Assembly (NCBI GenBank): GCA_963783135.1
Contig: CAWAMH010000006.1
Coordinates: forward strand, 21,792-85,791
From: an uncultured Chloroflexia bacterium
GTDB lineage: Bacteria; Chloroflexota; Limnocylindria; Limnocylindrales; CSP1-4
Direction of reading: 5' to 3'
Length of the DNA stretch: 64,000 nucleotides
Positions 12,775 through 60,414 of the stretch are shown here, piece by piece; the stretch's first letter is position 1; each line of letters opens with the position of its first letter. Position numbers and translations under genes: made by a program. The notes below the pieces were generated by a model. The model was given only the letters and a program-made list of their open reading frames with translations. It searched no databases and was not told the origin of the DNA.

Positions 12775-12780
12775 TAGACT
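12775..12780 (+). promoter_or_regulatory. -10-like TAGACT, flanked by the inverted repeat GTCCGCC...GGCGGAC, upstream of guaA
   Basis: TAGACTGGGCGGACA is followed by a GGGAGGGG ribosome-binding site and a TTG start at 12803. Confidence 0.3.
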
Positions 12781-12802
12781 GGGCGGACAGCGGGAGGGGC
12801 GA

Positions 12803-31885: not shown

Positions 31886-32140
31886 CCGCGGGGCGGCCCC
31901 GGCCTGGAGTTGGTGGCGCGTCCGTGCACCGCCCACCGGCGCTCCCGACCGCACCGCTCCGATCGCAGCCGTACCGGGCGAGCGGCAGACGGACCATGGG
32001 CACCCGGACCAAGTCTCCATCGACGCCCCGGAGTCGCGTCGGGACGCTGCGCTCGTACTCATCCCGCCCGCCGGTCGAGGGTCACCTGCGTTCGTCAGGG
32101 GCACTCGGACGGCGGGCACCATCATCTGGAGACCCTTCGA

Positions 32141-33265: not shown

Positions 33266-33586
33266 CCGCACGTCGGCCGCGGTCCATGCCGAGCTGAGCG
33301 TGGTGCGGGAGGATCACGGGCCCCATAACGGCCTTCGGAGGCCGTCCGGCGCTGCTCGGCCCCGCACTCGAGCGCAGGGTGCACATGAGGACTCGGATCC
33401 GCGAGACGGGCACGCCGCAAGAGAGCGGCTCGGCGCGCACGCCCCGGGGCAAAGCGCCGGCCCTGTGTGACCCCACTCGAGCGCACCTGACGCCACCGTA
33501 CCCGTCCGGACCGGGACCTTCGGGCGATGGTCCCGCCCGCCCGCCCGCACGTACGGTCAGCGCCTGACCGCAGCCGAGGAGGTCCC

Positions 33587-37510: not shown

Positions 37511-37537
37511 GCGGCGCGGCGCGCCTCGGCTCTCCCG

Positions 37538-37543
37538 TACACT
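37538..37543 (+). promoter_or_regulatory. -10-like TACACT ending 6 nt before the ppm GTG start; the transcript is probably leaderless
   Basis: Hexamer position relative to the GTG at 37550. Confidence 0.25.
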
Positions 37544-37549
37544 GCTCGC

Positions 37550-44307: not shown

Positions 44308-45159
44308 CTAGCGCCGCCCCGCCGAACCGGCGGCGCCGGGGACCGCGGCGAACCGCTGTGCGTCCTCCTCGGCCAGCAGCTTCCGCTGGGCGACCCGCTC
44401 GCGGTACAGATCGACGATCGCTCCCGGATCGCCCTCCTGGATGATCGTGCCCTTCTCGAGCAGGATCGCCCGGTTGCAGAACTCGGCCACGAAGGTGAGG
44501 TCGTGGGTCACCAGGACGATCGCTTTCGCCCGGTTGACGAGCTCGCGGACCCGGGCCTGGCTGCGTGCCCGGAACGTCTGGTCGCCGGTCCCGAGGACCT
44601 CGTCGAGCAGCAGGATGTCGGGTGTGATCGCGGTCGCGATCGAGAACCCGAGTCGGGCGCGCATCCCCGTCGAGTACGTCTTGACCGGCGCATCGATGAA
44701 CTGGCCGATGTCGGCGAACTCGATGATCGACGGCGCGAGCTCGTCCATCTGGTCCTGGTCGATCCCGAGGAACGCCCCGGCCAGGTCGATGTTGTCGCGG
44801 CCGGTCAGCTCGTGCTCGAAGCCGGCCCCGAGCGTCAGCAGCGTCGACACCCGACCGTGGGTCAGGATCTCGCCTTCGGTCGGCTCGAGGATCCCGGCGA
44901 GCGCGAGCAGGAGCGTGCTCTTGCCGGCGCCGTTCGGCCCGATCACCGCGAGCGATTCGCCCTGGGCGAGCTTGAACGACAGGTGACGCAGCGCCCAGAA
45001 GTGGTTCTCCCGGCCGGCGTCGCGGCGGAGCATCCCGGCCAGGGATCCCTTGAGCGTCGTCCGCTTCGTGAGGCGCAGGTCGTAGCGGATGCCGAGGTCG
45101 CGGATGTCGACCGCCGGCTCGGCCTCGCGGCCGACCTCCTGCTGGATCATCGGGTCCAT
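44308..45159 (-). CDS. wzt: ABC transporter ATP-binding protein, polysaccharide export type (Wzt/TagH/KpsT-like), short form without a C-terminal carbohydrate-binding domain
   Basis: Walker A GPNGAGKST, ABC signature YSTGMRARL and Walker B ILLLDEVLGTGD. Size and N-terminal region are typical of Wzt/TagH. Confidence 0.85.
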   Translation of the reverse strand: MDPMIQQEVGREAEPAVDIRDLGIRYDLRLTKRTTLKGSLAGMLRRDAGRENHFWALRHLSFKLAQGESLAVIGPNGAGKSTLLLALAGILEPTEGEILTHGRVSTLLTLGAGFEHELTGRDNIDLAGAFLGIDQDQMDELAPSIIEFADIGQFIDAPVKTYSTGMRARLGFSIATAITPDILLLDEVLGTGDQTFRARSQARVRELVNRAKAIVLVTHDLTFVAEFCNRAILLEKGTIIQEGDPGAIVDLYRERVAQRKLLAEEDAQRFAAVPGAAGSAGRR

Positions 45160-46019
45160 CACAGGATCCTCGCGAACGCCGGCTCGGCGCGCTTGAAGAT
45201 GTAGATCGCGACGAGCAGCAGCCCGAGCGAGAACACGAGGAGAAGGGCCAGCCCGAACCAGTCCGGCGGGCTGGTGCCCCAGGTCACGGCTCGGTACGAG
45301 TCGAACAGGACGGCGAACGGGTTGAGCGACAGGATCGTGTACAGCTGCGGGTGCGACTTCGCGATCACGTCGAGCGAGTAGAGCGCCGGCGACAGGTAGA
45401 ACCACAACCGGAGCACGTGGCGCAGGACGTTCTGGATGTCGCGGAAGAACGCGTTCAGCGATGACGAACAGGACGCCCATCGCCATCGTGAACACGAACT
45501 GGACACCCGCGATCAGCGGCAGGGTCAGGATCCAGAGCGCTGATCCGCTGCGGGTAGAAGAGCGTAGACGATCGCCAGTGCGATGAGTCCGAACACGAAG
45601 CTGACCGTGCCCGCGACCACGGCCGACGTGGGTAGCACGATCTTCGGGAACTGGACCTGGCGGATGAGGCTCTGGCGGCCGGTGACCGACAGCGTCGCCT
45701 CGTTGAGGGTCGTGCTGAACCACTTCCACGGCAGGATCGCCGCGAACAGGAACAGCGGGTAGTCCGGGATCGTCTTCTGGAAGATGATCGTGACCAGGAC
45801 GTAGTAGACGGCCATCTGGAGGAGCGGATCGATGATCCACCAGAGCTGGCCGAAGGCCGTGTCGGCGTGCGTCCGCTTGAGCTCCGCCCCGACGAGGTAG
45901 CGCGTCAGCCGGCGTCGGCCGAGGATCTCGCCGATGCCGGCCCGGACCAGGGCGATGGCGCCGCGCCGACGGACGGAGGGTCGCGGGGAGGCGATCGCCT
46001 CGGTGGTGGGAGCGCTCAT
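45159..46019 (-). CDS. wzm: ABC-2 type polysaccharide export permease (Wzm/TagG-like), with about 2 apparent frameshifts near 45480 and 45540
   Basis: N-terminal part in ORF 45525..46019 (LKRTHADTAFGQLWWIIDPLLQMAVYYVLV). C-terminal part in ORF 45159..45506 (FFRDIQNVLRHVLRLWFYLSPALY). ATGA overlap with wzt. Confidence 0.7.
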
Positions 46020-46046: not shown

Positions 46047-47531
46047 TCAGGAGCCATCGAGCAGCCGCGTGTAGAGCTCGAACAGCACGTCCACCTGGTG
46101 CTCCCAGTCGTAGACGGCTCCGGCGGCCGCACAGCGCGCCAGCAGGGCCGCCCGATCGGGCTCCGACGCGTCGAGGATCGCCCGGATGCCACGGCCGATA
46201 TCGGCCGGATCGGTCGGATCCACGAGCTCGCCGCAGCGCGTCTCGCGGACCACCTGGGACATCCCGGGCAGGTCCGACGCGACGACCGGGACCCCGGCCG
46301 CGATCGCCTCCCAGAGCTTGTTCGGCGTCGTGAAGCGATGGTTGAGCGAGGTCGGCTGGATGGCCATCAGCATGACGTCGGCGGAGGCCGTCCAGTCGAG
46401 GAGCTCGGCCGGCAGGGCCGGTCCGATGACCCGAACCCGATCGGCATAGCGGGGCGTGGCGGCGAGCCGGCGGATGTCAGTCTCGTGCGAGCCGAAGCCC
46501 ATCAGCACGAGCACTGCGTCCGGGACCGCCAGGATCGCCTCCATCCCCTGCTCGATGCCCCGGTCGCTCATCAGCCCGCCCTGGTAGAGGACGATCCGGG
46601 TCGAGGCCGGCAGGTCCAACCGCCGGCGGAGCAAGTCGGGCGCGGGGCTGGGCCGCACGTAGCGACGGGGCGTATTGCGCACGACCGGCGGGATCGGCAC
46701 CCGGAGCTGACCGGCGAGGATCCGGGCATACGCGTCGTTGACCGTGAGGATCGCATCGGCACGGCGGGCCCAGCGCCGCTCGAGCCGCCCGAGCAGCGAC
46801 TTCCAACCGCGGCCCATCGTCTCGACCCCACGGGCGTGGACGTAGATGTCGCGACTGTCGTAGATCGTCCGACCGCCGTGACGCCGGCGGAGCCGATCGA
46901 GTGCCGGCAGTGAGGCGGCCCACATCCCGTGCCACAGGTCCGCCGGGTCCGCGGTGTCGGCCAGGGCGACCGCCCAGCCCATCGGCCGGAGCGGGAACAG
47001 GACGAGCCGGCGGCGCCAGACGCCGAGGTCGTTCGAGACGATCCGGGCCCGCCGCAGCGGCCAGCCGAACACGGTCCCACGCATCGACCGCGGCAGGTGG
47101 TCCACCCAGCGTCCCTGCGCGGGTGCGGTCGATCCTGCCGGCTCGGAGTCCGGCGCCGGAGCCGATCCCGGTCCGCTGGCAGCGGACACTGGCGCCGCAT
47201 CGCGATCCTGTCGCGCCGCATCACGACCCGGTGCGGCTCCCGATGCAGCGTCCGCCGACCGCCCGGCGGACAGGATCGCGCGAAGACGCCGACGACCCCT
47301 CCCGCGCAGGCCCGGGATCGCCAGCTCGGCCAGCGCCGGGACGCGCACGATCCGATAGCCGCGGCCCTCGGACTCCAGCGCGACCCCCGGCTCCCAGCGG
47401 GCGTAGACCACGACGTCATAGCCGCGCTCGACGGCCGACTCGGCCATGCGCTCCGTCCGCGAATCGAACTGGCCGGTGGAGTAGGTGAGGTAGGCGATCC
47501 GCCGCCGCGACCCCGGCGCCTCCTCGCTCAC
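46047..47531 (-). CDS. GT4 glycosyltransferase, third paralogue of the same subfamily, intact
   Basis: The likely GTG start (VSEEAPGSRRRIAYLTYSTGQFDSR...) overlaps the upstream stop as GTGA. C-domain IVLYQGGLMSDRGIEQ and GVPVVASDLPGM. The domain order is the same as the paralogues at 41470 and 42870. Confidence 0.7.
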   Translation of the reverse strand: MSEEAPGSRRRIAYLTYSTGQFDSRTERMAESAVERGYDVVVYARWEPGVALESEGRGYRIVRVPALAELAIPGLRGRGRRRLRAILSAGRSADAASGAAPGRDAARQDRDAAPVSAASGPGSAPAPDSEPAGSTAPAQGRWVDHLPRSMRGTVFGWPLRRARIVSNDLGVWRRRLVLFPLRPMGWAVALADTADPADLWHGMWAASLPALDRLRRRHGGRTIYDSRDIYVHARGVETMGRGWKSLLGRLERRWARRADAILTVNDAYARILAGQLRVPIPPVVRNTPRRYVRPSPAPDLLRRRLDLPASTRIVLYQGGLMSDRGIEQGMEAILAVPDAVLVLMGFGSHETDIRRLAATPRYADRVRVIGPALPAELLDWTASADVMLMAIQPTSLNHRFTTPNKLWEAIAAGVPVVASDLPGMSQVVRETRCGELVDPTDPADIGRGIRAILDASEPDRAALLARCAAAGAVYDWEHQVDVLFELYTRLLDGS

Positions 47532-49264
47532 ACGACACCCAGGCGTTCGTACAGCGCCCGATAGCGCGCCCCGTTCTGGCGCCACGTCCGATTCTCGGCG
47601 ACCCACATCCGGGCCGATCGACCGAGGCGCTCGCGCTCGGCCGGATCGTCGAGCAGCGGTTCGAGCACATCGGCGAGCGCGATCGGATCCTCGGGCCGGA
47701 ACGAGCGACCCGTCTCGCCGTCGTGGACGATCTCGAGCAGCGCCCCGACCTCGCTCACGACGAGCGCGCGCTCCATCGCCATCGCCTCGTAGGGCTTCAA
47801 CGGCGTGACGAGCTGCGACACGCGGTCGTTCGTGCGCGGGACGACGAACACGTCGATGAGCCGGTAGTAGTCGAGGACCTGGTCGTGGGGGACCCGTCCG
47901 GTGAAGATCACGGTCCCGTCGTCGACCCCGGCCGCGGTGGCCGTCGCCTCGAGCGCCGCGCGCTCCTCGCCGTCGCCGACAAGGAGGCAGCGGACGCGGC
48001 GACCGCGTCGGCGCAGCTCGGCCGTCGCCTCGATGAGGTAGCGGATCCCCTCGTAGCCGGTGAAGCTCGAGATGTAGCCGATGACCGGGTCCGTCCCGAC
48101 CCCGACCCGGGTGGCCAGCGCGGGGTCGCGCGGCCCAGGGACGAACCGGTCGACGTCGACCCCGTTCGGGACCACGACCACGCGATCGGGGTCGGTCCCG
48201 CCGCGGTCGAGGATGTCCGCGCGCATCGTCTCGGACAGGGTCACGACGGCGTCGGCGTCGCGCATGCAGGCGGTCTCGACGTCACGGGACGCGCGGTAGC
48301 GGTCGCTCTCGGCGACATCGGTGTCGGCCCGCGATCGCCACGTCTCCTCGAGGAAGCCGCGGACCTCGTAGACGACCGGGATCCCGTACCGGTCGCGCAG
48401 CGCGAGCGCCACCTGGGCGTTGACGTGGTTCGAGGCCGGCTGGAGGACGGCGGGCCGGAGCTGCTCGACGAGCGCCGTGGCGGCCTCGGCCTCCGCACGG
48501 ACCAGGTCGTCGATCGGCGTGGCGGGGTCGAGATCGGGCAGGATCCGGTGGTACGTGACCCCGTCCACGACCGATGTCGGCGGCGCCCCGCGGATCCCCT
48601 CGTTGCGCGGGAACGCGGCTCGGGTGGCCATCCGCGGGTCGAGCCCGGCGTCGATCTGGCAGCGGGCCACCTGCTGGGCGCGGACGGTGTAGCCGGCCTC
48701 GCGGTACGGCAGCGAGTTCGTGAGGAGGTGGAGGACCCGCCCGGGGATCGGCGTGGGTCGTTCGGAGACGACATCGAGCGTCGGTCGCCAGCCAGGGGTG
48801 AGCACCGTGAGCTCGGCCCGGGCCCGATCGCGGATCGTCGCCGCGGTCAGGTCGCGCGGGCGTAGCTCGGCCGCGCGGGTCGCCCGCTCGGCGGCGGACG
48901 TGTAGCGGCCGAGCTGGAGGTCGACCTCCGCCCGGAGGACGAGCTCGGCCGGGTCGTCCTCGGGTGGGAGGGCGTCGAGCAGTCCCGCCGCGGTCCCACG
49001 TGCCCCGATCTCGAGGCACGCCCGGGCGAGCCGGATCGTTCCCGACCGGCGGATCCGGGGCTCGCGCCCGGCGCGCTCGGCATAGGCCGCCGCGTCCGCC
49101 GTCGATGCGGTCCAGCGCAGGCCCAGCGTCCGGAAGGTCGGGCCGCTCGGGCTCTTCGGGCCACCCAGGATGAACGCTCGGTGTGACAGGGCGAGGAAGG
49201 TCCGGCCGACGAGTCGTCGGCGCGGCGGCGCGAGGCCGTCGGTCAGCCGGACGATCAACCGCAT
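47528..49264 (-). CDS. GT4 glycosyltransferase with an N-terminal helical (TPR-like) extension of about 190 aa
   Basis: ATG at about 49262-49264 (MRLIVRLTDG...). C-terminal region has a classic GT4 signature (GRVLHLLTNSLPYREAGYT, VVPNGVDVDRF, EAMAMERALVVSEVGALLEIV). Confidence 0.75.
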   Translation of the reverse strand: MRLIVRLTDGLAPPRRRLVGRTFLALSHRAFILGGPKSPSGPTFRTLGLRWTASTADAAAYAERAGREPRIRRSGTIRLARACLEIGARGTAAGLLDALPPEDDPAELVLRAEVDLQLGRYTSAAERATRAAELRPRDLTAATIRDRARAELTVLTPGWRPTLDVVSERPTPIPGRVLHLLTNSLPYREAGYTVRAQQVARCQIDAGLDPRMATRAAFPRNEGIRGAPPTSVVDGVTYHRILPDLDPATPIDDLVRAEAEAATALVEQLRPAVLQPASNHVNAQVALALRDRYGIPVVYEVRGFLEETWRSRADTDVAESDRYRASRDVETACMRDADAVVTLSETMRADILDRGGTDPDRVVVVPNGVDVDRFVPGPRDPALATRVGVGTDPVIGYISSFTGYEGIRYLIEATAELRRRGRRVRCLLVGDGEERAALEATATAAGVDDGTVIFTGRVPHDQVLDYYRLIDVFVVPRTNDRVSQLVTPLKPYEAMAMERALVVSEVGALLEIVHDGETGRSFRPEDPIALADVLEPLLDDPAERERLGRSARMWVAENRTWRQNGARYRALYERLGVV

Positions 49265-49441
49265 CTTGTGCGAGCGAAGGACCTCGAGTGCCGAGCCAGG
49301 GTCGGCGATCGCGTGGCGGAGGGCCGCACCCGGGCCCGTCGGTCGGCTCAACGGACGGCGTCGAGCCCGCCCGGTTTCGGGGATACTGCGCCGAAGGCCG
49401 CGGCGCAGGCGTCGACCGTCGGGCCGAACGGGAAGGGGACC

Positions 49442-50545
49442 ATGGCGGAGACCGTAGCACACGTCGTCGGCGCGCGGCCCAACTTCATGAAGGCCGCTCC
49501 GGTCATCCGTGCGCTCACCGCGAAGGGCGTCCCGCAGGTCATCGTCCACACCGGCCAGCACTACGACGACCGGATGTCCGAGGTGTTCTTCCGCGAGCTC
49601 GATCTGCCCCGTCCCGACCTCAACCTCGGGGTCGGGTCGGGCAGTCACGCGGAGCAGACGGCCAGGATCATGGTCGCCCTCGAGGGCGCCTTCGCGGACC
49701 TCGATCCGGCGCTCATCGTGGTCTACGGCGACGTGAACTCGACCCTCGCTGCCGCCGTGGTCGCAGCGAAGCTCGGCCGGCCCATCGCCCATGTCGAGGC
49801 CGGCCTGCGGAGCTTCGACCGATCGATGCCCGAGGAGGTCAACCGGGTCGTCACCGACGTCCTGTCCGACCTCCTGTTCACGACGAGCCCCGAGGCCGAG
49901 ACCAACCTCGCGCGCGAGGGGATCGACCTGGGCCGCGTCCACTTCGTGGGCAATCCGATGATCGACACGCTCCTCGCCAACCTCGACCGGTTCGACGTCG
50001 CCGCGGCCCGCGCCCGGCTCACGCTCGCCGGCCGGTACGGTGTCGCGACCCTCCACCGCCCGGCCAACGTCGACGACCCGGTCACAGCCGGGCGGATCGT
50101 CGCCGCGCTGCGCGGCGTCGCGGAGCTCGTGCCGCTCGTCATCCCGCTCCACCCGCGCGGGCGGGCGACGCTCGAGGCCGCCGGCCTGGCGGGCGATCCG
50201 CGGGTAACGGTCATCGACCCGCTCGGCTATATCGACTTCATGTCGCTCGTCCGTGGCGCGGCGATCGTCGTGACCGACTCGGGCGGGATCCAGGAGGAGA
50301 CGACGATCCTCGGGGTCCCGTGCCTGACCGTCCGGCCCAACACGGAGCGTCCGATCACGATCAGCCACGGGACGAACCGACTCGTCGAACCCGAGGACGT
50401 GGCCGCGGTGGCGCGCGTCGTCCTCGACGGACCGTCGGGCGATCCGCCATCCCCGCCACCGCTCTGGGACGGCGCCGCCGGTGAGCGGATCGCGTCGATC
50501 GTCGAACGCTGGCTGGCGGCCCCGGCCGCGGTCGGCCGACCCTGA
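49442..50545 (+). CDS. wecB: UDP-N-acetylglucosamine 2-epimerase (non-hydrolysing)
   Basis: HVVGARPNFMKAAPV, HTGQHYD, GDVNSTLAAA and VTDSGGIQEE motifs, with a GAAGGGGA ribosome-binding site. Confidence 0.9.
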   Translation: MAETVAHVVGARPNFMKAAPVIRALTAKGVPQVIVHTGQHYDDRMSEVFFRELDLPRPDLNLGVGSGSHAEQTARIMVALEGAFADLDPALIVVYGDVNSTLAAAVVAAKLGRPIAHVEAGLRSFDRSMPEEVNRVVTDVLSDLLFTTSPEAETNLAREGIDLGRVHFVGNPMIDTLLANLDRFDVAAARARLTLAGRYGVATLHRPANVDDPVTAGRIVAALRGVAELVPLVIPLHPRGRATLEAAGLAGDPRVTVIDPLGYIDFMSLVRGAAIVVTDSGGIQEETTILGVPCLTVRPNTERPITISHGTNRLVEPEDVAAVARVVLDGPSGDPPSPPPLWDGAAGERIASIVERWLAAPAAVGRP

Positions 50546-50663
50546 CCGGCGGTCGCGACGGCCGAGACCGGGTATCCTCTCGCGGTGCGCTGCGCCCCGC
50601 CTGCCTCGTCCGCGGCGCCGGGTGCGCGACCCCGGCTACGCCGGTGACCGGACTGGAGGATCC

Positions 50664-51968
50664 ATGAACGAAGACCGTCGCCTGGCCGTGATCGGCCTGG
50701 GCTACGTCGGGCTCCCGCTTGCCATCTCGTTCGTCGAGGCGGGGCTGGAGGTCGAGGGCGTCGACGCCCACCCGGGCCGGATCGCCGAGCTGAGCGCCGG
50801 CCGATCGCCGATCGACGACATCCCCGACGACCGTCTGACCGGGGCGCTCGCCGCGGGCCTCCGGCTGGTCGGGACGGATGCGGCCCGCCTGACCGAGGCG
50901 GATGTGATCTTCGTCTGCGTCCCGACCCCGATCGATCAGGCCAAGGACCCCGATCTCGGCCCGGTCCTGTCGGCGGCCGAGCTCATCCGGCGCCATCTCC
51001 GGAAGGGCCAGCTCATCATCCTCCAGTCGACGACGTTCCCCGGGACGACGACCGGTCCCTTCCGCAAGGTCCTCGAGCAGAGCGGCCTCATCGCCGGACG
51101 GGACTTCGATCTCGCCTTCGCGCCCGAGCGGGTGAACCCGGGCGATCCGGCCAGCGCCGCCAAGGACGTCCCGCGTCTCGTCGGCGCGACGACGCCCGAG
51201 GCGACCGACCGGGCGGCCGCGCTTCTCGGCCGGATCAACAACCACGTCGTCAAGCTGTCGTCACCCGATGCCGCCGAGCTGGCGAAGATCCTCGAGAACG
51301 TCTTCCGGAACGTGAACATCGCGCTCGTCAACCAGCTCGCGCTGCTCTGCGAGCGGATGGGCATCGACGTCTGGGAGGTGATCTCGGCCGCCGCGACCAA
51401 GCCGTTCGGGTTCATGCGCTTCACGCCGGGTCCGGGCGTCGGCGGGCACTGCATCCCGGTCGACCCGTACTACCTCGCCTGGCGGGCACGCGAGTTCGAC
51501 TTCGTCGACCGCTTCGTCGAGCTCGCCGGCGACATCAACTACGCGATGCCGCGCCACGTCGTGGACCTCGTCGCCGAGGCGCTCAACGATCGGGGCAAGG
51601 CGCTCAAGGGCGCCCGGGTCGGTGTTCTCGGGGTCGCGTTCAAGCCGGGTGTCCGCGACGCGCGGAACTCGCCGGCCGCCGCGATCCTGGCCGGCCTGGC
51701 GACCCGAGGTGCGGTCGTCGATTACCACGACCCGCACGTCCCACGGTTCCGCGACACCGACGGCGTCGCGCGCGATTCGGTCGGGCTCGATGCGGTCCTC
51801 GCCGACAGCGACGTGGTGGTCGTCGTGACGGCCCACCGTGAGATCGACTGGGACCGCGTCTACGGGTCCGCCGGACTCGTCGTGGATACGGTCGACAGCT
51901 CGCGCGGCCGGACGGCCACCGACCGCCAGGTGCTCCGGCTCGGCGCCGGCTGGACGGTCCGGGCGTGA
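50664..51968 (+). CDS. wecC: UDP-N-acetyl-D-mannosamine dehydrogenase (nucleotide-sugar dehydrogenase family)
   Basis: Rossmann motif IGLGYVGLPLA, catalytic region GFMRFTPGPGVGGHCIPVDPYYL, and a GGAGGA ribosome-binding site. The adjacent wecB suggests the product is UDP-ManNAcA. Confidence 0.8.
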   Translation: MNEDRRLAVIGLGYVGLPLAISFVEAGLEVEGVDAHPGRIAELSAGRSPIDDIPDDRLTGALAAGLRLVGTDAARLTEADVIFVCVPTPIDQAKDPDLGPVLSAAELIRRHLRKGQLIILQSTTFPGTTTGPFRKVLEQSGLIAGRDFDLAFAPERVNPGDPASAAKDVPRLVGATTPEATDRAAALLGRINNHVVKLSSPDAAELAKILENVFRNVNIALVNQLALLCERMGIDVWEVISAAATKPFGFMRFTPGPGVGGHCIPVDPYYLAWRAREFDFVDRFVELAGDINYAMPRHVVDLVAEALNDRGKALKGARVGVLGVAFKPGVRDARNSPAAAILAGLATRGAVVDYHDPHVPRFRDTDGVARDSVGLDAVLADSDVVVVVTAHREIDWDRVYGSAGLVVDTVDSSRGRTATDRQVLRLGAGWTVRA

Positions 51969-54175
51969 GCGGGACGGGAACCCAGCCGGGCGACGCCCGG
52001 GCCGACGAGCTGACGATGACCTCCGCCGACCTGTCGCTCGAGCGGAAGCTGAGCCTGTTCATCCTGGCGATCACGCCGATCCTGTTCCTGGTCTTCCTGG
52101 CGCTGACACCGCCGGTCAACCCGACGTTCGACGACGCCAAGTACATCGGCGTCGGCCGCAACTTCCTCGACGGGAACGGCCCGACGACCGTCTTCGGGGT
52201 CGTCTTCCTCAAGCACTCGCCGCTGTGGCCGATGATCATCGTGATCCCCGAGAAGCTGTTCGGGATCCACCCGGTCGCGACCGGCCACTTCATCAACGCG
52301 GTCAGCGGCGCCCTGACGATCGTCCTCGTCGGCTTCCTCGGCTGGCGGGTCCGGCCGGCGATCGGCGCCGTGGCGGCGGTCCTCTTCGCCGCGCTGCCGT
52401 ACGTCTTCGACATCGCCCGGACCGCCGGCATCGACCTGCCATCGATCGCCCTGACCCTGCTCTACATCATCGTCGGCTTCAGCGTCGTCCGGACCGGATC
52501 GATCTGGCGGGCGATCGTCCTCGGGGGGATCTTCGCGGCCGCATTCCTGATCAAGGAGACGATCCTGCCGTTCGCGGTCGTTCCGTTCATCCTCGGGATG
52601 ATGTGGGGCGTGTCCTGGACGAACCTGGCCAGGACCGCGGCGGTGACCCTCGCGACCGCGGCCGTCGGGATGTCGTGGTGGTTCGTGATGTACGCGGGCT
52701 ACACGCAGGAGGTCTACCGGGCCGACTTCCCGGAGTGGACGCTGATCCCGAGCGCGTTCGCGGTCGTCGTCTTCCTCATCCTCGGGCTGGCTGCGGGGCC
52801 GATCGCCCGAGCGATCGACCGTCGTGGCTGGGACGCTCGGGTGGCCGCCCGACTCCCCGGTCGGCTCCGGAGCCGGACGTTCCTCGGCTGGACGGCCGTC
52901 CTCGTCTGGTTCGTCCTCCTGACGATCTTCTTCGGCCGGACGCCGAAGCTGCTCGGCGCCTCGCTGTTCGACCCGCGCCAGCTCTACTACATGGTTGTGA
53001 ACTCGCTCGGCTCGGTCCGCCTGGCGTTCGCCTACGGACTCGGGACGTTCCTGCTCGTGGCCGAGCTCATCCGCGATCGGCGGCGGGTCGCCCAGGCCAG
53101 CATCGATGCACTCGTGCCGATGCTCTGCGGGATCCCGCTCGTGCTGCTCGTCGTCGGGGTGGGCGAGACGCCGCGGCACTACATCGCCGAGCTCGCGCTG
53201 ATCATCCTGACCGGCACGATCGGCTGGTATCACGGCCTGATCCGGCTCCGAGAGCGCGATCGGTTCATGGCCGCGCTGTTCACGGGGCTCGTCGTCCTGG
53301 CCGCCGTCATCCTCGCCCTGTCGACGCTCCAGCGGATCACCCCGAAGGTGATCGTCGCGGGCATCGTCGGCCTCGTCGTCCTGGCGGTGGCCGCGGTCGT
53401 CGTCGTGACCGTGCTCCGGCGGCGCGGCCGGCTGTCCGCGATCGGCGTGGTCGCGCTCGGGGCCATCTTCGTGCTCGCGATCGGGACTGTCGGCGTTCGC
53501 GCGATCCGCCTGCCGGGCACCACCAGCGCCAACGAGATCAAGGCGACCGCCGATACGATCGCCTGGCTGAAGGCGAACGTGCCCAAGGGCGCCACCGTCG
53601 CATTCGGGCCGTACCTCAGCATGGAGACCTCGATCGACATCCCGGCCGGCTACAAGGCGATCCAGGTCCGGCACTACCTCGCGATCGAGGACCCGAAGGC
53701 GCCGCTCGGACTGCGCAGCGCGACCGGTACCGCCACGGACTACGTCGCCGTCGATACCGCCCCGATCAAGGCGAACCAGTTCAACGTGTACGCGTCCAGC
53801 CTCATCACGCGACTGATGAAGGACGGGAACGCGCTGTACTACGTCTATCCGGTCACCCGGGCGCGATCGTCGAAGGAGGTCCTCAACGTCCTCACCCCGG
53901 AGAACGGCTTCACCGAGGTCGACACCCGGACGTACGAAGGCCCGAGCGACACGATCGACGTCCACACCTACAAGGTGGACCTCGACAAGCTGGCCATCCC
54001 GACCGACAAGATCTACGTGGCGGCCGACGCGCTCGACCGCCTCGTGACCAGCCTCGAGGCCGACCCGACGAACGGCGCGACCGCGGCCGGCAACCTGCTC
54101 GATCGGGTCGTCCGGCCGGCCGACGGCTCGGAGGACGCGCTCCTCGCTCGGCTCAAGACGCTGGCGGGTCGCTGA
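51965..54175 (+). CDS. Polytopic membrane glycosyltransferase of GT-C type (ArnT/PMT/EmbC-like, 12 or more TM helices) with a C-terminal extracytoplasmic domain
   Basis: GTGA overlap with wecC. The N-terminal helices match GT-C topology, with an early periplasmic loop (FDDAKYIGVGRNFLDGNG). A soluble domain of about 200 aa lies at the C-terminus. A polyprenol-P-mannose synthase is encoded in the same locus. Confidence 0.6.
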   Translation: MSGTGTQPGDARADELTMTSADLSLERKLSLFILAITPILFLVFLALTPPVNPTFDDAKYIGVGRNFLDGNGPTTVFGVVFLKHSPLWPMIIVIPEKLFGIHPVATGHFINAVSGALTIVLVGFLGWRVRPAIGAVAAVLFAALPYVFDIARTAGIDLPSIALTLLYIIVGFSVVRTGSIWRAIVLGGIFAAAFLIKETILPFAVVPFILGMMWGVSWTNLARTAAVTLATAAVGMSWWFVMYAGYTQEVYRADFPEWTLIPSAFAVVVFLILGLAAGPIARAIDRRGWDARVAARLPGRLRSRTFLGWTAVLVWFVLLTIFFGRTPKLLGASLFDPRQLYYMVVNSLGSVRLAFAYGLGTFLLVAELIRDRRRVAQASIDALVPMLCGIPLVLLVVGVGETPRHYIAELALIILTGTIGWYHGLIRLRERDRFMAALFTGLVVLAAVILALSTLQRITPKVIVAGIVGLVVLAVAAVVVVTVLRRRGRLSAIGVVALGAIFVLAIGTVGVRAIRLPGTTSANEIKATADTIAWLKANVPKGATVAFGPYLSMETSIDIPAGYKAIQVRHYLAIEDPKAPLGLRSATGTATDYVAVDTAPIKANQFNVYASSLITRLMKDGNALYYVYPVTRARSSKEVLNVLTPENGFTEVDTRTYEGPSDTIDVHTYKVDLDKLAIPTDKIYVAADALDRLVTSLEADPTNGATAAGNLLDRVVRPADGSEDALLARLKTLAGR

Positions 54176-54180: not shown

Positions 54181-55407
54181 GTGACGTCCCGGGAAGATCG
54201 TCCGGCCCGGCTTCGCCCGGTCTGCATGATCGTCCACTCGTACTACGAGGAGGATCCCCGGGTCCGGCGCGAGGCCGAGGGGCTCGTTGCCCGCGGCCGG
54301 CCGGTGGACGTCATCGCCCTCCGCCTCCCCGGCGACCCGGCGAACGGCATCCTGAACGGGGTCCGGATCCGACGGCTCGGCGTCCAGCGCCACCAGGGGG
54401 CCGGGCTGTGGGTCTACCTGCGCGAATATCTGAGCTTCCTGGTCCGGGCCGGCTGGGCGGCGACGACCGCCTACCGGAGCCGGCGCTACCGGGTCATCCA
54501 GGTCCACAGCCTGCCGGATTTCCTCGTGTTCGCCGCCCTGCCGGTCAAGCTGGCCGGGGCGAAGGTGATCCTCGATCTCCACGAGGCGATGCCGGAATTC
54601 TTCCGGACCCGGTTCCCGACCGTCCGCAACCCCCTCGTCCACCGTGCGCTCCTGTTCCAGGAGCGGCTGTCGATCGCGTTCGCCGACCGGGTCTTCTCGG
54701 TCAACGAGCTGATGGCCGACCGGCTCCTTGGGCTCGGGGTGGATCCGGACAAGCTGACGATCGTGCCGAACGCGCCGAACCTCGAGCTGTTCGACGCGGC
54801 CGCGTATCCGCGGCGGACGTTCCGTGCCGACGGGTCGTTGCGGGTGGTCTACACCGGGGCCCTGACGCCGACCTACGAGCTCGACGTCGCGCTCGACGCG
54901 ATCGGCCGGCTGGCGACCGACCGACCCGACCTCGACATCCGGCTCGAGCTCTACGGCCGAGGCGACAGCGAAGACGCCCTCCGCCACCGGATCGACGATC
55001 GGGCGATCGCCGACCGGGTCACGTTCCACGGCCGGATCCCGATCGAGTCCGTGCCTGCGGCGGTGGCCGCCGCGGATGTCGGGATCGCCCCGACGCGGCT
55101 CGATGAGTTCACGGCGGTCACGATGTCGACCAAGGTCTTCGAGTACGCGGCGATGGGCAAGCCCGTGGTGGCATCGCGCCTGCCGCTCGTCGAGCGGACG
55201 TTCGCCCCGGACACGATCCTGACCTATCCCTCGGGCGACGCGGACGCGCTGGCCGCGGCGATCGTCCGTCTGGCCGACGAACCGCTCGAGCGCGAGGCAC
55301 GCGTCGCCCGGACGGCGGCCCGCGTCCGCGCGCTCGGTTGGGCCGCCGAGGCGGACCGCTACTCCGCCGTCGTCGACGCGCTCGCCGGCGATCGTCCGGC
55401 GTCCTGA
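54181..55407 (+). CDS. GT4 glycosyltransferase
   Basis: GTG start 6 nt after the upstream stop. VVYTGALTPTYELDVAL, KVFEYAAMGKPVVASRLP, and an EX7E-like region. Confidence 0.75.
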   Translation: MTSREDRPARLRPVCMIVHSYYEEDPRVRREAEGLVARGRPVDVIALRLPGDPANGILNGVRIRRLGVQRHQGAGLWVYLREYLSFLVRAGWAATTAYRSRRYRVIQVHSLPDFLVFAALPVKLAGAKVILDLHEAMPEFFRTRFPTVRNPLVHRALLFQERLSIAFADRVFSVNELMADRLLGLGVDPDKLTIVPNAPNLELFDAAAYPRRTFRADGSLRVVYTGALTPTYELDVALDAIGRLATDRPDLDIRLELYGRGDSEDALRHRIDDRAIADRVTFHGRIPIESVPAAVAAADVGIAPTRLDEFTAVTMSTKVFEYAAMGKPVVASRLPLVERTFAPDTILTYPSGDADALAAAIVRLADEPLEREARVARTAARVRALGWAAEADRYSAVVDALAGDRPAS

Positions 55408-55409: not shown

Positions 55410-57689
55410 ATGCTCGGCGTGCCCCGGCGCAAGGCACGCACAGCGCTCCGTCTCGCACGGATCGCCGCGGCGCGTCAGCGGTTGCGTGCGCTGCCCGGGC
55501 AGGAGCGGGCGATGATCCGACGCCTCGGCGCGCGGATGCCGGTGTCGACGGTGGTCGACGGTCCGCTCGTGTCGGTCGTCGTGGTCGGTCGCGACCGCGG
55601 CCCGATCCCCGCGGCCCTGCGCCGGGCGATCGAGCACACGACCTACCGGCCGATCGAGATCCTGCTGTCCGACGCGACCCCCGAGACCCGGGCCAGCGCG
55701 ATCGGGTCGGCGGTGGCCGGCGCGCGTGGCGAGATCGTCTGCCTGCTCGATCCCGCCGCTGAACCGGCCCGCGCCGATTGGCTCGGGCACCTCGTCGAGT
55801 CGCTGCTCGGTGGCGCCGTCGGCGTGGGTCCCCTCATCGTCCGGGCCGCGGGTCGCCGACCCGTCCCGGCCAGCCAGACGGAACCCGACCTGACGCTCCT
55901 GTCGTCCGGGATCGACCTCGCCCGGGAGGGTGCCGACGCCCTCCCGCGCCACATCGGGATCGGCGCGGACCCGCTGACGTCCGCCGGACGTGTCGTGGCG
56001 GTGCCCGGCCTCGCGACGGCCTGCCTGGTCGTGCGTCGAGCGGACCTCGTCGCGGCGGGCATCCCGTCCGGCTACGAGTACGACGGTATCGCGAGCGGTC
56101 CGGCCGCCACGCCCTACCTCGACATGGACCTGTCGATCCGACTCCGCTCGGTCGGCGGGTCGATGCTGGTCGACGGGCGGACGGCGATCCGCTACCACGT
56201 GGAGCGCGGGCCGCTGCCGCCGCTGCCGGTCCGACCGGCGCGACGCTCGGACCCGATCCCGGACCCGGAGCGCGACGTCTTCCTCGACGCGTGGGGTCCG
56301 CGGCTCTGGCGGGAGGCGATGCTCGACGTCGTCGACGATCGACACCTCTGGTCGTCCAGGCCGCTCGCCGTGGCGATCGTGGGGCCGGCTGGGGTCCGGC
56401 CGATCCTGCCCGACGGCCCACCGCCCGGGCTCGATTGGCAGCTCGCGCGCTGGTCGGCCGGGCTGCCGGAGCCGGACGATCCCGCCTGGTCGGCCACCGA
56501 CGTCGCGATCGTCGTCGACCCCGGCCCGGAGCTCGCCGGCGCGCCGCCCGGGCCGATCCGGATCGCCTGGCTGGACCCTCCCGGGTCCCCGGCCGACGAT
56601 CGGCGCCTCCAGGCGTTCGACATCGTCCTGGCCGGCGACGCCGACACGGCGGCTCGCGTCCAGGCCACGGTCGGCACCGGCGTGACCGTCGCCGACCTGC
56701 GCGGGCCGGCCGCGGCTGAGCAGGTCGAGCGGGCGCTCGTCGGCTGGCTGCGGACCCGTCGGGTCGGGATCCGGATCGGGGTCACACGACCGGAGGCCAC
56801 CGAGCGCTGGGGCGACACGCACTTCGCGCGCGCCGTCCAGCGTGAGCTCGAGCGCAGCGGCTATCCGACCCGGATCCACATCCTCCCGTCGTGGGCGGCG
56901 CCCGTCGCGGCGCGCGAGGACGCGACGCTCCACGTCTTCGGCCTTCGGGCTGCCCCGACCCGACCGTCGCAGGTCAACCTGCTCTGGCAGATCAGCCATC
57001 CCGACCTGGCGGATCCGGACCTCTACGATCACTACGACGCCGCGTTCGTCGCCTCGGACCGGTTCGCGGCGTCGATGGCCGCCCGGACGACGACGGCCGT
57101 CCGCGCGCTCCATCAGGCGACCGATCCGGACCTGATGCGACCGGATCCCAGCGGGCCGCACCATGAGCTCCTGTTCGTCGCCAACTCGCGCAACATCCGC
57201 CGCACGATCGTCGACGACCTCGCCGACACGAGCCACGACCTCGCGATCTACGGCCAGAAGTGGACTCCGGAGCTGGTGGATCCACGCTTCGTCCGCGGTG
57301 ACGGGGTCCCGGCCGACGAGCTGGCTCGCTACTATTCGTCGGCCGACATCGTGCTCAACGACCACTGGCAGGACATGCGGACCGAAGGGTTCATCTCCAA
57401 CCGGATCTACGACGCGCTCGCCGCCGAGGCCTTCGTGATCTCCGACCATCTCGACGAGATCGCTCCGGAGTTCGACGGCGCTGTCCCGACGTTCGCCGAC
57501 CGGGCCGGCCTCGAGGCGCTCATCGACCGGTACCTCGCCGATCCACCGGAGCGCCGACGGCTGGCCGAGCGCGGCCGACGGATCGTCCTCGAGCGGCACA
57601 CGTTCCGCCAGCGTGTCGATGTCATCGTCGCGACGCTCCGGCCGCTCCTCGCGGAACGTCCGTCGCGGATCGTCGAGGACGGTCCGTGA
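55410..57689 (+). CDS. Fusion glycosyltransferase: an N-terminal GT2-like domain plus a C-terminal CgeB-like (DUF3880 / Glyco_trans_1_2) domain
   Basis: N-terminal domain: VSVVVVGRDRGPIPAALRRAIEHTTYRPIEILLSD. C-terminal domain: ELLFVANSRNIRRTIV...IYGQKW...YYSSADIVLNDHWQDMRTEGFISNRIYDALAAEAFVISDH, typical of the CgeB family. Confidence 0.65.
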   Translation: MLGVPRRKARTALRLARIAAARQRLRALPGQERAMIRRLGARMPVSTVVDGPLVSVVVVGRDRGPIPAALRRAIEHTTYRPIEILLSDATPETRASAIGSAVAGARGEIVCLLDPAAEPARADWLGHLVESLLGGAVGVGPLIVRAAGRRPVPASQTEPDLTLLSSGIDLAREGADALPRHIGIGADPLTSAGRVVAVPGLATACLVVRRADLVAAGIPSGYEYDGIASGPAATPYLDMDLSIRLRSVGGSMLVDGRTAIRYHVERGPLPPLPVRPARRSDPIPDPERDVFLDAWGPRLWREAMLDVVDDRHLWSSRPLAVAIVGPAGVRPILPDGPPPGLDWQLARWSAGLPEPDDPAWSATDVAIVVDPGPELAGAPPGPIRIAWLDPPGSPADDRRLQAFDIVLAGDADTAARVQATVGTGVTVADLRGPAAAEQVERALVGWLRTRRVGIRIGVTRPEATERWGDTHFARAVQRELERSGYPTRIHILPSWAAPVAAREDATLHVFGLRAAPTRPSQVNLLWQISHPDLADPDLYDHYDAAFVASDRFAASMAARTTTAVRALHQATDPDLMRPDPSGPHHELLFVANSRNIRRTIVDDLADTSHDLAIYGQKWTPELVDPRFVRGDGVPADELARYYSSADIVLNDHWQDMRTEGFISNRIYDALAAEAFVISDHLDEIAPEFDGAVPTFADRAGLEALIDRYLADPPERRRLAERGRRIVLERHTFRQRVDVIVATLRPLLAERPSRIVEDGP

Positions 57690-57705
57690 CCGGGCCGAGC
57701 GGGTC

Positions 57706-58572
57706 GTGAGCGGCCCGACGGGCCGCGCCCGATCGGCTGCCCGCCGCCTGCCGCGATCGATCCGGCGGCCGATCTTCCGGCTGCTCGGACGGCCGTTCCC
57801 GGAGAGCGACCCGCCGCCGATCACGGCACCGAGCGACGGCGAGGCCACCGACGCGACGGGCTTCAACCGGGCCTACGTCGGCGCCCGCCCCGAGCTCGTG
57901 GAGCGTCTGCCGGCCACGTGTCGGAACGTCCTCGACCTTGGCTGCGCGACCGGCGAGGTCGGGGCCGCCGTGAAGCGCCGGATCCCCGCCGCGAGCGTGA
58001 CCGGCGTCGAGCTCGACCCGGCGATGGCCGCGCTCGCCGCCGAACGGCTCGACCACGTCGTCGCGGCGAACCTCGAGGACGGCGATGCCATCGCCCGGGA
58101 ACTGGCCGGTCCGCCGTTCGATGGGGTGATCGCCGGGGACATCCTCGAACATCTCGTCGACCCGTGGCGGACCCTGCGCGATCTCCGGGCGGTCCTGGCC
58201 CCCGGCGCGGTCATCGTCGCGAGCCTGCCGAACGTCGGCTTCTGGGACACGTGGTGGAACGCGATGGTCCGCCGGCGCTGGCCGTACCGGCCACGCGGGA
58301 TCCACGACGCGACCCATCTGCGGTTCTTCGCCCGCCACAACGTCGAGCCGCTGTTCAGCCAGGCAGGCTTCCGGATCGAGCGTCTCGACCGGACCTACCG
58401 CCTCGTCGAGCGGCCCCATCCACGCAACCGGCATGCGCGGCTCTTCGCGCTGCCCGGTCTGCGCGACCTGCTCACGTTCCAGTTCCTCATCGTGGCCCGG
58501 CTCGAGGCCGCGGACGCGGGCGGCATCGACGACCCCACGGACGACCGCGCCGAACTGGTGCCGCCCGGCTGA
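57706..58572 (+). CDS. Class I SAM-dependent methyltransferase
   Basis: Motif I VLDLGCATGEVG, the post-I acidic residue VTGVELD, motif II VIAGDILEHL and LAPGAVIVASLPN. The gene lies at the end of the glycosyltransferase operon. Confidence 0.75.
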   Translation: MSGPTGRARSAARRLPRSIRRPIFRLLGRPFPESDPPPITAPSDGEATDATGFNRAYVGARPELVERLPATCRNVLDLGCATGEVGAAVKRRIPAASVTGVELDPAMAALAAERLDHVVAANLEDGDAIARELAGPPFDGVIAGDILEHLVDPWRTLRDLRAVLAPGAVIVASLPNVGFWDTWWNAMVRRRWPYRPRGIHDATHLRFFARHNVEPLFSQAGFRIERLDRTYRLVERPHPRNRHARLFALPGLRDLLTFQFLIVARLEAADAGGIDDPTDDRAELVPPG

Positions 58573-58658: not shown

Positions 58659-60414
58659 ATGACCTCACGTACCAAGCCGACCGCCAAGCGGTCGGGCCGG
58701 TTCGGCCACGATGACCGGGACCGGCGCGGTCTCTATCTCAACCTGGCCTTCGGCCTCGTCATCGCCATCGGGGTGATCACGCTCGTCGGGGCCGCCATCG
58801 CGACCTACATGGGCAGCCACTTCGCCGAGGCCGCCAAGGTCAACGGCCAGACCATCACCGAGGAGGCGGTCGCCGAGCAAGGCCAAGGTCGACACCTTCC
58901 GGATCAACGCCGCAGAGTCCCAGCTGCGCGACCAGAACCAGCTCGGGCGGCTGACCGACTCCGAGCTCGAGCAGCGGCTCGCGGTCCTCGAGCAGCAGCG
59001 CACCACCCTGTCGGGCAACACGCTCGACCGGCTCGTCGACTCGACGCTCCAGGGCCAGCTCGCGACCCAGAAGGGGATCACGATCACCGACGCCCAGATC
59101 GACCAGCGGCTCGTCGACGAGGCGACCCAGAAGGAGCAGCGTCAGATCGGGCAGATCACGATCGAGCCCGAGGTGACGACCGGCGCGACCGGTCCGACCG
59201 ACGCCCAGAAGGCCACCGCGAAGGCCGCCGCCGACAAGGCGCTCGCCGACATCAAGGGCGGCAAGACGTTCGAGGAGGTCGCCAAGGCGGTCTCGAAGGA
59301 CGCCTACGCGGCCTCCGGCGGCGACGTCGGCTGGCTCGATCGCCGACGATCCGTCGGTCGATCCCGCGTCCTCACGGCCGCGTTCGCCCTGACCGAGCCG
59401 GGTCTGACCGAGGTCGTCGACCGGCGCCGGCGACGCCTACCTCATCGGCCAGGTCCGTCAGATCTCGCCGGCCACGGTCGACGGTCCGACTGGACCGAGA
59501 AGATCAAGGACGCCGGGCGTCCCGCTGGGCGCCTATCGCGACGCCGTCCGGGCCGATCTCGTCCGCGACGCGCTGACCAAGCAGGTCGTCGCCGAGGCCA
59601 CCGAACAGCCGACCACCCAGCGCCAGGTCAGCGAGATCTTCGTCTCGAGCGCCGACTACCAGGGCCCGGCGACGAGGTCCTGGTCAAGCACATCCTGTAC
59701 ACGCCGGGCGACAAGGCGCCCGACGCCGCAGAACCCGGTCGCATCGGACGATCCGGGCTGGGCCACGGCCAAGGCCAAGGCGCAGGCCACGTACGACAAG
59801 CTCAACGGCGCTGACCGGCAAGCCGGACGAGCTCGAGACCCAGTTCGCGGCGATCGCCAAGACCGACAGCCTCGACAGCGGGTCGGCGGCCAACGGCGGC
59901 GAGCTCCAGTGGTTCACCCGGAGCGCAGCTCGACTCGGGCTTCGGCGACGCGATCTTCAAGGACGGACTCAAGAAGGACGACCTCCTCGGCCCGGTCCAG
60001 AGCCAGTACGGCTACCACGTCATCCTGTTCGAGGAGCGTCGGCCGCCGCCCGAGGGCCGGATCGAGGGGCTCCAGGTCCAGGCGAACGCGCCCGGTGCCG
60101 ACTTCGCGGCGCTGGCCAAGGCCGAACTCGGACGGCGCCGAGAAGACCCAGGGCGGCGACCTCGGCTGGGTCGCGCCGCTCCAGCTCGACGCGGAGCGCG
60201 AGCAGGCGATCTTCGCTGCGCCGATCGGCAAGGTCAGCGACACGCTCAAGACCGACAGCGGCTACTACGTGTTCCTCGTCCGCGACCGAGCAGAGCCGGC
60301 TGCCGGACGGCGACCAGCTCGCGACGCTGAAGGACAGCGCGTTCACGAACTGGTTCGCGACCGAGACGGGCGAAGGCGGACATCACGCCCGACCTCTCGG
60401 CCGGCAGCTCCTAG
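58659..60414 (+). pseudogene. Membrane-anchored parvulin-type peptidyl-prolyl isomerase (SurA-N plus two PpiC domains), heavily frameshifted (at least 6 frame changes)
   Basis: N-terminal anchor MTSRTKPTAKRSGRF...LAFGLVIAIGVITLVGAAIATY. Parvulin motifs (GGDVGWLD, GGDLGWVAPLQLDAEREQAIFAAPIGKVSDTLKTDSGYYVFLV) are scattered over all three frames. Confidence 0.55.

Follow-up and report, generated by a model that had tools for sequence, protein, structure and literature searches.

A GT2–CgeB glycosyltransferase fusion with a candidate pseudo-GT2 module in an envelope-glycan cluster of an uncultured Chloroflexota bacterium

Introduction

Does a protein that joins a GT2-like domain to a CgeB-like domain add two different sugars? 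The question is raised by a gene in a 64,000-nt stretch of DNA from an uncultured Chloroflexia bacterium (GenBank assembly GCA_963783135.1, contig CAWAMH010000006.1, positions 21,792 to 85,791 of the forward strand; hereafter the window), which encodes a multi-module glycosyltransferase (GT) referred to below as the target. The original prediction, made from the letters alone, described a GT2-type segment fused to a DUF3880/CgeB-like GT-B segment in a single polypeptide, proposed a bifunctional transferase adding two residues and did not recognise the architecture as a described family. Our analysis confirms the fusion and both folds, makes bifunctionality unlikely and shows that the architecture is not unique. 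The target genuinely joins three parts in a single chain: a candidate pseudo-GT2 module, an orphan N-terminal half left over from a first GT-B module (GT-B 1) and an intact second GT-B module (GT-B 2). The reading that we favour, at somewhat better than even chances, is one active site (GT-B 2) accompanied by a non-catalytic pseudo-GT2 module.

Domain anatomy of the target

The AlphaFold2 (AF2) model of the full protein had a predicted local distance difference test score (pLDDT) of 85.1 and a predicted template modelling score (pTM) of 0.83. In Foldseek searches this model matched GT4-type GT-B enzymes best, with weaker matches to GT-A polypeptide N-acetylgalactosaminyltransferases (ppGalNAc-transferases). 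A Pfam scan of the target returned PF13524 (Glyco_trans_1_2, CgeB-type) as the sole family, and an NCBIfam scan found nothing beyond the Pfam result. The domain boundaries and key motifs are given in Table 1. The first 47 amino acids (aa) are a shortened counterpart of the longer helical, coiled-coil-like leader found in the relative P0015 and in the protein of locus L003, whose open reading frame (ORF) has a long helical N-terminal leader.

The N-terminal half of the target has a GT-A fold of GT2 ancestry. In BLASTP, aa 40-300 and the GT2 domain of P0015, which Pfam recognises, shared 33% identity (E 2e-27). An AF2 model of the isolated N-terminal domain displayed a beta/alpha/beta core for which the top 50 Foldseek matches were all GT-A enzymes (E ~1e-8, template modelling (TM) scores 0.45-0.51), with ppGalNAc-transferases as the top matches. 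The TM scores are moderate because the isolated model is weaker than the full-length one (pLDDT 67.3 compared to ~85-95 for the same region). An N-terminal half lacking a glycosyltransferase fold, which had been named beforehand as a finding that would overturn the original prediction, is excluded by the homology to P0015 and the GT-A matches. The GT2-type assignment therefore stands for fold and ancestry; it does not stand as a recognisable GT2 family, with no GT2 model in Pfam or NCBIfam matching the segment at E<=1 and its motifs lost.

Loss of ligand motifs in the GT2-like module

A reference hidden Markov model (HMM) of 28 canonical relatives served to align all the proteins retrieved. 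The canonical signature reads LVSIVVLNRDG / VVDNGSxD / NxSFSxANNQG / LLNNDVEP / TLQHGG / YGxEDVDLCL. In the target and its subfamily the VVDNGSxD and NxSFSxANNQG blocks were deleted or swapped for a segment of variable length and sequence, with HMM positions 52, 53, 55, 57, 80, 83 and 88 missing or substituted, and the 25-aa gap in the BLASTP alignment with P0015 sits exactly over 'VVDNGSSDASVSVVESWQSRFPVRL'. HMM position 105, the metal-binding Asp, is D in 28/28 canonical members and A in the target; the 10 other subfamily members have Ala in eight cases and Thr or Gly in the other two. The Q-H pair is replaced by S-S or L-S throughout the target and subfamily. The counterpart of E-D-x-D-L, in the region of the GT2 catalytic base, is preceded by a 9-aa insert and has lost its Glu, with D238 and D240 invariant.

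Among the 48 positions conserved in at least 90% of the 28 canonical members, the losses comprised D52/N53/S55/D57, N80/F83/N88, N103/D105, Q154/H155, E219, T249 and N265 (the first eight "gaps" in the motif table reflect local-alignment trimming, the target having P52, V54, S55 and R61). The lost positions are mostly polar and of the ligand type, and the structural Gly, Trp, Pro and Leu positions are retained. Fold residues kept together with ligand residues lost are the usual signature of a pseudoenzyme. The subfamily displays a signature of its own, GELVCLLDPAxEP and DWLGHLVES, with invariant C111, D114, P119, D160, D169 and H181. A family profile that included canonical relatives matched GT2 structures in the PDB (6yv7 at E 1e-8, 2z86 and 5hea; K4CP, GalT1 and heparosan synthase), and a profile built from the close subfamily only matched zero GT2 structures at E<=10. 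Judged by its motifs, the GT2 module is most likely a non-catalytic pseudo-glycosyltransferase. Degeneration of this module seems to have occurred more than once in the family, in P0025, P0026, P0086, P0092, P0106 and the L003 protein.

An intact CgeB-like module

At the C-terminus, aa 597-740 matched PF13524 at E 7.8e-23 with 81.5 bits (cut-off 25), spanning profile positions 1-143 of 144. The CgeB-like GT-B of the original prediction is borne out by this match, and the DUF3880 part of that label is not, PF12996 remaining undetected by Pfam in the target at E<=1. The best Foldseek matches were GT4-type GT-B enzymes at E 4e-9 to 1e-6 (ManT 7qsg, GlgM, SPS, PglA, MshA and BshA); the subfamily profile search gave no sequence link to ManT, the best structural match.

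Conservation in GT-B 2 was computed over 80 related loci from many taxa. The target was identical at 46 of the 55 positions that are at least 90% conserved, among them each of the 24 with 100% conservation across the 80 loci. Invariant residues are found on the acceptor side (W467, G468, D469, W526, S529 and H530) and on the donor side (R594, R598, G615, W618, N650, D651, H652, M656, N664, R665, D668 and D679), and V590, Y642 and A671 are further invariant positions that are kept. GT-B 2 (aa ~450-750) is a complete two-lobed GT-B and the only module that still looks catalytic.

A vestigial half module between the two

The original prediction described two domains and missed a third module at aa ~318-448. 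This region is what is left of a first CgeB-like GT-B module, namely its N-terminal half; the donor-binding half has been deleted, so that the target carries one donor-binding PF13524 half only (aa 586-750) and not two. It is predicted as beta-alpha-beta in the AF2 model of the target, and aa 353-455 aligned with P0015 aa 480-574 at E 1e-7. P0015 aa 153-536 are in turn colinear with aa 71-459 of a protein from a Methanosphaera sp. metagenome-assembled genome (MAG; locus L022) at E 5e-68, and P0015 then resumes at aa 637-954 of the archaeal protein (E 1e-69). The intervening ~177 aa (L022 aa 460-636), the donor-binding half of GT-B 1, are missing from both P0015 and the target. The link to the Methanosphaera protein was made via P0015 because direct BLASTP of the middle region was not significant (E 2.1).

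Selection differs between the modules. Mean pairwise identity among 10 subfamily members was 0.62 for the GT2-like module and 0.64-0.66 for GT-B 2, and was lowest for the orphan half (0.45). Ratios of non-synonymous to synonymous substitution (dN/dS) by the Nei-Gojobori method (NG86), calculated against the related loci L085 and L081, were respectively 0.23 and 0.31 for the GT2-like module (0.23-0.49 over the comparisons), 0.29 and 0.57 for GT-B 2 and 0.56 and 0.97 for the orphan half; the absolute values are unreliable and the ranking is consistent, with the GT2-like module constrained like GT-B 2 and the orphan half relaxed. The middle-domain value against a third locus, L084, was set aside as an artefact of indels in L084.

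One gene in one reading frame

The target ORF runs from an ATG at 55410 to a stop at 57687-57689 and encodes 759 aa; this length and all peptide strings quoted in the original prediction are present in the translation. The window has a G+C content of ~72%, and high G+C at third codon positions (GC3) was confined to one frame across 55401 to ~57500. The target protein is colinear end to end with at least 10 full-length homologues from JGI, ENA, NCBI and Logan assemblies. We regard it as one gene and not a frameshift join because GC3 is continuous in one frame and the colinear homologues come from independent assemblies. The locus L084 (97% identical, sample ERZ25039478) has three 1-nt insertions in the middle domain, at L084 6424-6570 compared to window 56439-56585, and in this stretch the window frame is that of all other homologues. 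Two genes fused by sequencing error, the other outcome that had been set beforehand as refuting, are excluded by the continuous GC3, the independent homologues and this frame match, and the single polypeptide of GT2-derived GT-A and CgeB-type GT-B is upheld. P0002, the protein called from L084, is truncated because of the three insertions.

The ATG lies 2 nt behind the TGA of the upstream GT4 gene. A 100% identical database entry, P0001, begins at M35; the start at 55410 is preferable because residues 1-34 are conserved in relatives.

Two other genes in the window are interrupted. The frame of a SurA/PpiC-type rotamase gene (58665-59900, +) switches several times, and its counterpart in L081 is intact with 579 aa. 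An ABC-2 (Wzm/TagG-like) permease gene (45159-46019, -) is split by in-frame stops into two ORFs in the same frame (45525-46019 and 45159-45506), between which a plausible transmembrane stretch, 'ALWILTLPLIAGVQFVFTMAMGVLFVIA', can be read in another frame; this suggests two compensating 1-nt indels, from assembly error or in a pseudogene. Frameshifts in both these genes mark the source assembly of the window as an indel-prone (long-read) one. The target ORF itself is uninterrupted despite these neighbours.

Distribution of the architecture

A database search with the target returned 19 relatives. The close ones (44-72% identity, 720-780 aa) had PF13524 as their only Pfam family. P0015 and P0016 (39-40% identity, 93-97% coverage; 40% identity across 97% of the query for P0015) carry both GT2 (PF00535/PF13641/PF10111) and PF13524, as do the Nocardioides proteins P0018 and P0019. 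With tblastn, a GT2 followed by two CgeB-like segments was found in Chloroflexota (L002-L004), Acidimicrobiia (L005-L006) and the Methanosphaera MAG. The protein of this last locus (L022 9896-12772, 958 aa) has a textbook GT2 (VDNHSKD, LNNDTEP, YEDVDL) and two PF13524 domains, and displays 33-37% identity to the bacterial proteins. The family crosses domains of life, since this archaeal protein has a fully canonical GT2 and two CgeB-like modules.

The ancestral or full form of the family is a GT2 (GT-A) followed by CgeB-like GT-B 1 and CgeB-like GT-B 2. Three-module relatives comprise the L022 ORF, P0014, P0024 and P0037, and P0015 and P0016 have two and a half modules. The three-module protein at L003 9566-12853, from a Candidatus Limnocylindrales MAG, is an intermediate state; its GT2 keeps H-D-D (DXD) without VDNGS and EDxDL, and both of its CgeB-like modules are intact.

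An HMMER scan with aa 40-450 gave 106 matches at E<=1e-3, four of them at E<=1e-30. The family is small, since these 106 matches were found among 1.84 billion cluster representatives. Module states of proteins with this GT2 subtype were scored with local HMMs from alignment A1. A canonical GT2 was accompanied by two CgeB-like donor halves in 18 proteins and by one in 22; a degenerate GT2 was accompanied by one donor half, the target type, in 21 and by two in five. At least 66 of the 105 proteins with the GT2 subtype have one or two CgeB-like domains and the other 39 are mostly short fragments, and the GT2-CgeB fusion is the rule in this GT2 subfamily. Independent projects have yielded more than 10 clusters with the target's reduced architecture. 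The impression of an unrecognised architecture does not hold, databases already labelling such proteins 'GT2 family glycosyltransferase/spore maturation protein CgeB' (JGI) or 'glycosyltransferase' (Nocardioides, NCBI). In a full-text literature search, no paper on the GT2 and CgeB architecture and no experimental study of the family was found.

One active site or two

Several observations weigh against a single active site beside a pseudo-GT2 module. The inactivity of the GT2 module is read from sequence motifs, and its strong purifying selection, invariant D114 and kept D238/D240 would also fit a site that is remodelled yet active; GT-A enzymes that work without a metal are known. The module taken to be active has its own deviations, A591 (G in 99%), A635 (N in 99%), F510 and L538, together with M576 and three conservative changes. 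E673 (codon GAG, 57426-57428), in the 'ALAxGxFV' loop of the donor-side Rossmann half, is private to the target, the position being Gly in 95% of the 80 loci. G673E and N635A may be real divergence or base errors and could affect activity. Extreme GC3 (~0.9) and indel errors in the contigs used for comparison distort the NG86 dN/dS values.

The best-surviving alternative is the bifunctional enzyme of the original prediction, in which the GT2-like and CgeB-like modules would both be active Leloir transferases adding two different residues, as a bifunctional or alternating co-polymerase. Multifunctionality is probable for the family at large, P0015, P0016 and the L022 protein combining intact GT2 motifs with one or two CgeB-like modules, and in the target the GT2-like domain is under purifying selection with D114, D238 and D240 kept. 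Against two active sites in the target itself stand the deleted nucleotide-binding segment, the replacement of the DXD-type Asp in the target and all 10 other subfamily members, the loss of QH and of the Glu of ED and the failure of the subfamily profile to match either a GT2 model or a GT2 structure. The beta2-alpha3 segment is also variable among close relatives, which is unexpected for a ligand-binding loop. We consider this model unlikely for the target; it suits P0015 and P0016 better.

A GT2-like module that is catalytic but repurposed, drawing on a donor other than a nucleotide sugar (for instance a polyprenyl-phosphate sugar) or catalyzing another glycan reaction, would account for the strong conservation, the new subfamily-specific signature and a selection matching that on the catalytic module. 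The pattern of kept structural residues and lost ligand residues is, however, that of pseudoenzymes, the context requires no extra activity (four GT4, one GT2 and one GT-C are nearby), and we know of no cytoplasmic GT-A that uses lipid-phosphate sugars, all of which make repurposing quite improbable. That the whole gene is decaying or partly an assembly artefact, with a non-functional protein, is highly improbable: the frameshifted permease and PpiC/SurA-like genes, the three indels in L084 and the changes G673E and N635A would fit it, but the ORF is uninterrupted in the window and agrees in frame with all homologues across the L084 indel stretch, dN/dS is well under 1 in two of the three modules and the same reduced architecture recurs in independent projects.

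Gene neighbourhood

The envelope-glycan setting of the original prediction was confirmed, with WecB, a nucleotide-sugar dehydrogenase, GT-C, GT4 enzymes, a methyltransferase and an ABC-2 exporter around the target (Table 1). WecB scored above the NCBIfam cut-off and the best match of the dehydrogenase was UDP-N-acetylmannosamine (UDP-ManNAc) dehydrogenase; the pair is likely to supply precursors. A DegT aminotransferase gene lies further upstream. The gene order WecB, dehydrogenase, PMT_2, GT4, target, methyltransferase, rotamase, MazG, RNase PH, Ham1, LytR-CpsA-Psr (LCP) ligase recurs, whole or in part, in L081, L084 and L085, with an LCP gene in the cluster of L081 and L084 and a Methyltransf_23 gene in the same neighbourhood in L081. 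In L083, only the dehydrogenase, GT4 and WecB lie beside the homologue, together with a separate canonical GT2. From this we infer that the neighbourhood fits an ABC-transporter-dependent pathway for an envelope glycopolymer, possibly with N-acetylmannosaminuronic acid (ManNAcA). With its WecB, dehydrogenase, GT-C and ABC-2 exporter, it is not a spore locus.

Table 1. Modules and motifs of the target and genes of its neighbourhood, in window positions.
Feature	Positions	Strand	Basis or remark
Target gene, multi-module glycosyltransferase (stop included)	55410..57689	+	ORF/translation, GC3 frame, colinear homologues, AF2 model
aa 1-47, two basic N-terminal helices	55410..55550	+	DSSP helices 4-23 and 29-42; conserved in P0004-P0009
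aa 48-310, GT2-derived GT-A domain, degenerate motifs (pseudo-GT2 candidate)	55551..56339	+	BLASTP, Foldseek, motif census
End of beta2 (EILLSD88) and junction without canonical VVDNGSxD...NxSFxxANNQG	55656..55685	+	BLASTP gap, alignments
D114-P115-A116 at the canonical N-N-D (DXD-type) site	55749..55757	+	Alignments, family HMM
L237-D-M-D-L241, counterpart of E-D-x-D-L	56118..56132	+	D238 and D240 invariant in alignment A1
aa 318-448, orphan Rossmann-like half domain (GT-B 1 remnant)	56361..56753	+	P0015/L022 colinearity, secondary structure
aa 450-585, acceptor-side Rossmann half of GT-B 2	56757..57164	+	Motifs WGDxHFAR, WQISHPD, HQATDP; Foldseek GT-B matches
aa 586-750, donor-side Rossmann half, PF13524	57165..57659	+	Pfam; motifs FVANSR..R, YGxxW, LNDHWxDM, NRxYDALA
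GT4 glycosyltransferase	42654-44264
TagH/Wzt-like ABC ATPase	44308-45204	-	ABC-2 type polysaccharide exporter
ABC-2 permease, broken in the assembly	45159-46019	-	ABC-2 type polysaccharide exporter
GT4 glycosyltransferase	46047-47606	-
WecB (non-hydrolysing UDP-GlcNAc 2-epimerase) and nucleotide-sugar dehydrogenase	49268..51968	+	Conserved beside relatives
736-aa polytopic GT-C-type (PMT_2) membrane glycosyltransferase	51965..54175	+	PF13231 E 2e-5, just below cut-off
GT4 glycosyltransferase	54205..55407	+	Directly upstream of target; position kept in relatives
S-adenosylmethionine (SAM)-dependent methyltransferase	57613..58572	+	Directly downstream; start uncertain, longest ORF overlaps target end

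Further genes of the region were noted. A PpgS/AglJ/DPM-like GT2 of the polyprenyl-phosphate sugar synthase type (37511-38386, +) lies in the same region as the PMT_2 GT-C, a pairing characteristic of decoration with a lipid-phosphate sugar outside the cytoplasm. The gene at 33491-37510 (+), immediately upstream of the glycan genes, encodes a secreted-type protein of 1339 aa that combines GH18, SH3, several Ig-like and two FlgD_ig domains. The ORFs at 47723-48865 (+) and 31886-33061 (+) have coding-like GC3 and zero Pfam or NCBIfam matches; a homologue of the former adjoins a GT4 gene in L002. In L081, genes for a CmcI-type methyltransferase and a WsaF-like protein (S-layer glycan rhamnosyltransferase family) lie at 12224-14002, between the homologue and Methyltransf_23, and are absent from that position in the window.

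Proposed function

We propose that the target is a reduced member of a multi-module, cytoplasmic, polymer-building glycosyltransferase family. GT-B 2 would act as its single active site and transfer one sugar from a nucleotide sugar to a lipid-linked envelope glycan, the donor being the WecB/dehydrogenase product, possibly UDP-ManNAcA, or the next sugar along the glycan. Assembly of the glycan would fall to the neighbouring GT4 enzymes, with possible methylation by the downstream methyltransferase; after export through the ABC-2 transporter, the GT-C (in relatives also the LCP ligase) would process it outside the cell. The pseudo-GT2 may be kept by purifying selection as a scaffold, an oligomerisation surface or an acceptor- or glycan-binding surface for GT-B 2, and the orphan half (aa 318-448), a relaxed vestige of GT-B 1, would serve as a spacer. 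A broader proposal, to which we give slightly less than even chances, concerns a GT2 domain stripped of its nucleotide and metal elements yet held under purifying selection as strong as that on the adjacent active site: it would be a bacterial pseudo-glycosyltransferase selected for a new task without catalysis (for example polymer holding or oligomeric geometry). The three-module polymerases in which it acts would make envelope polymers of the ManNAcA type in Chloroflexota, Actinomycetota and methanogens.

Comparison with known systems

The closest comparison is with the three-module family itself (L022, P0015), with which the target is colinear and shares the GT2 subtype, the CgeB-like motifs and the glycan-cluster context. 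Like P0015 it lacks the donor half of GT-B 1, and unlike P0015 and L022 it lacks the GT2 donor and metal motifs. Inverting GT2 enzymes (PF00535; SpsA, the K4CP chondroitin polymerase and PcManGT 6yv7) share the GT-A fold and are homologous to the target through P0015/P0016; unlike them, the target is without the nucleotide-binding Asp segment, the DXD-type Asp, the QH and the E.

Bacillus subtilis CgeB, a putative UDP-sugar GT-B in spore-crust maturation, has the PF13524 domain and GT-B fold in common with the target. CgeB stands alone as a protein of 317 aa and acts on a spore-crust protein, whereas the target module is part of a 759-aa fusion; the cluster around it is a vegetative envelope-glycan one, and the organism is high-GC, Chloroflexota-like and non-sporulating. 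The likeness runs through PF13524 and the fold. The GT2 partner in B. subtilis, CgeD, is a separate protein. The original prediction rightly called CgeB poorly characterised, only weak UDP-glucose (UDP-Glc)-dependent modification of CgeA having been reported (PMC13577073).

A precedent in principle is EXT2, which contains an inactive pseudo-glucuronosyltransferase (pseudo-GlcA-T) domain (PMC9675754). The pseudo-GT2 of the target would be analogous to that domain: in each case a multi-domain glycan synthase has kept a GT-fold domain without its catalytic residues, presumably in a structural role. EXT2 is eukaryotic and unrelated in sequence, its pseudo-domain is a GT-B (GT47), and its inactivity has been demonstrated, whereas that of the target module is inferred.

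WbdA, WbbB and WsaE are multi-domain polymerising glycosyltransferases of ABC-transporter-dependent O-antigen and S-layer glycan pathways. They resemble the target in having several GT modules per chain, in the helical or coiled-coil leader (in the target's relatives) and in the ABC-2 exporter and methyltransferase of the cluster, to which the WsaF-like and CmcI-type methyltransferase genes next to the L081 homologue can be added. Their modules come from different GT families (GT4/GT4, GT1/GT25/GT99 and GT2/GT2); the likeness is one of architecture and context. Chain-length control by methylation in the target system is speculative.

Significance

For annotation, a 'GT2 + CgeB fusion' is not automatically 'bifunctional'. 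CgeB-type glycosyltransferases are abundant and almost unstudied, and here they are fused to GT2 in envelope-glycan clusters far from spore formers, where the conserved WecB/dehydrogenase neighbours provide a context for guessing donor and acceptor. The family offers a natural series, from three intact modules in Methanosphaera, through the loss of half of GT-B 1 in P0015, to the target, in which the GT2 is degenerate too. This series is a ready-made dissection of module requirements and, if the GT2 module is the pseudo-glycosyltransferase that its motifs suggest, a clean bacterial example of how such a domain originates.

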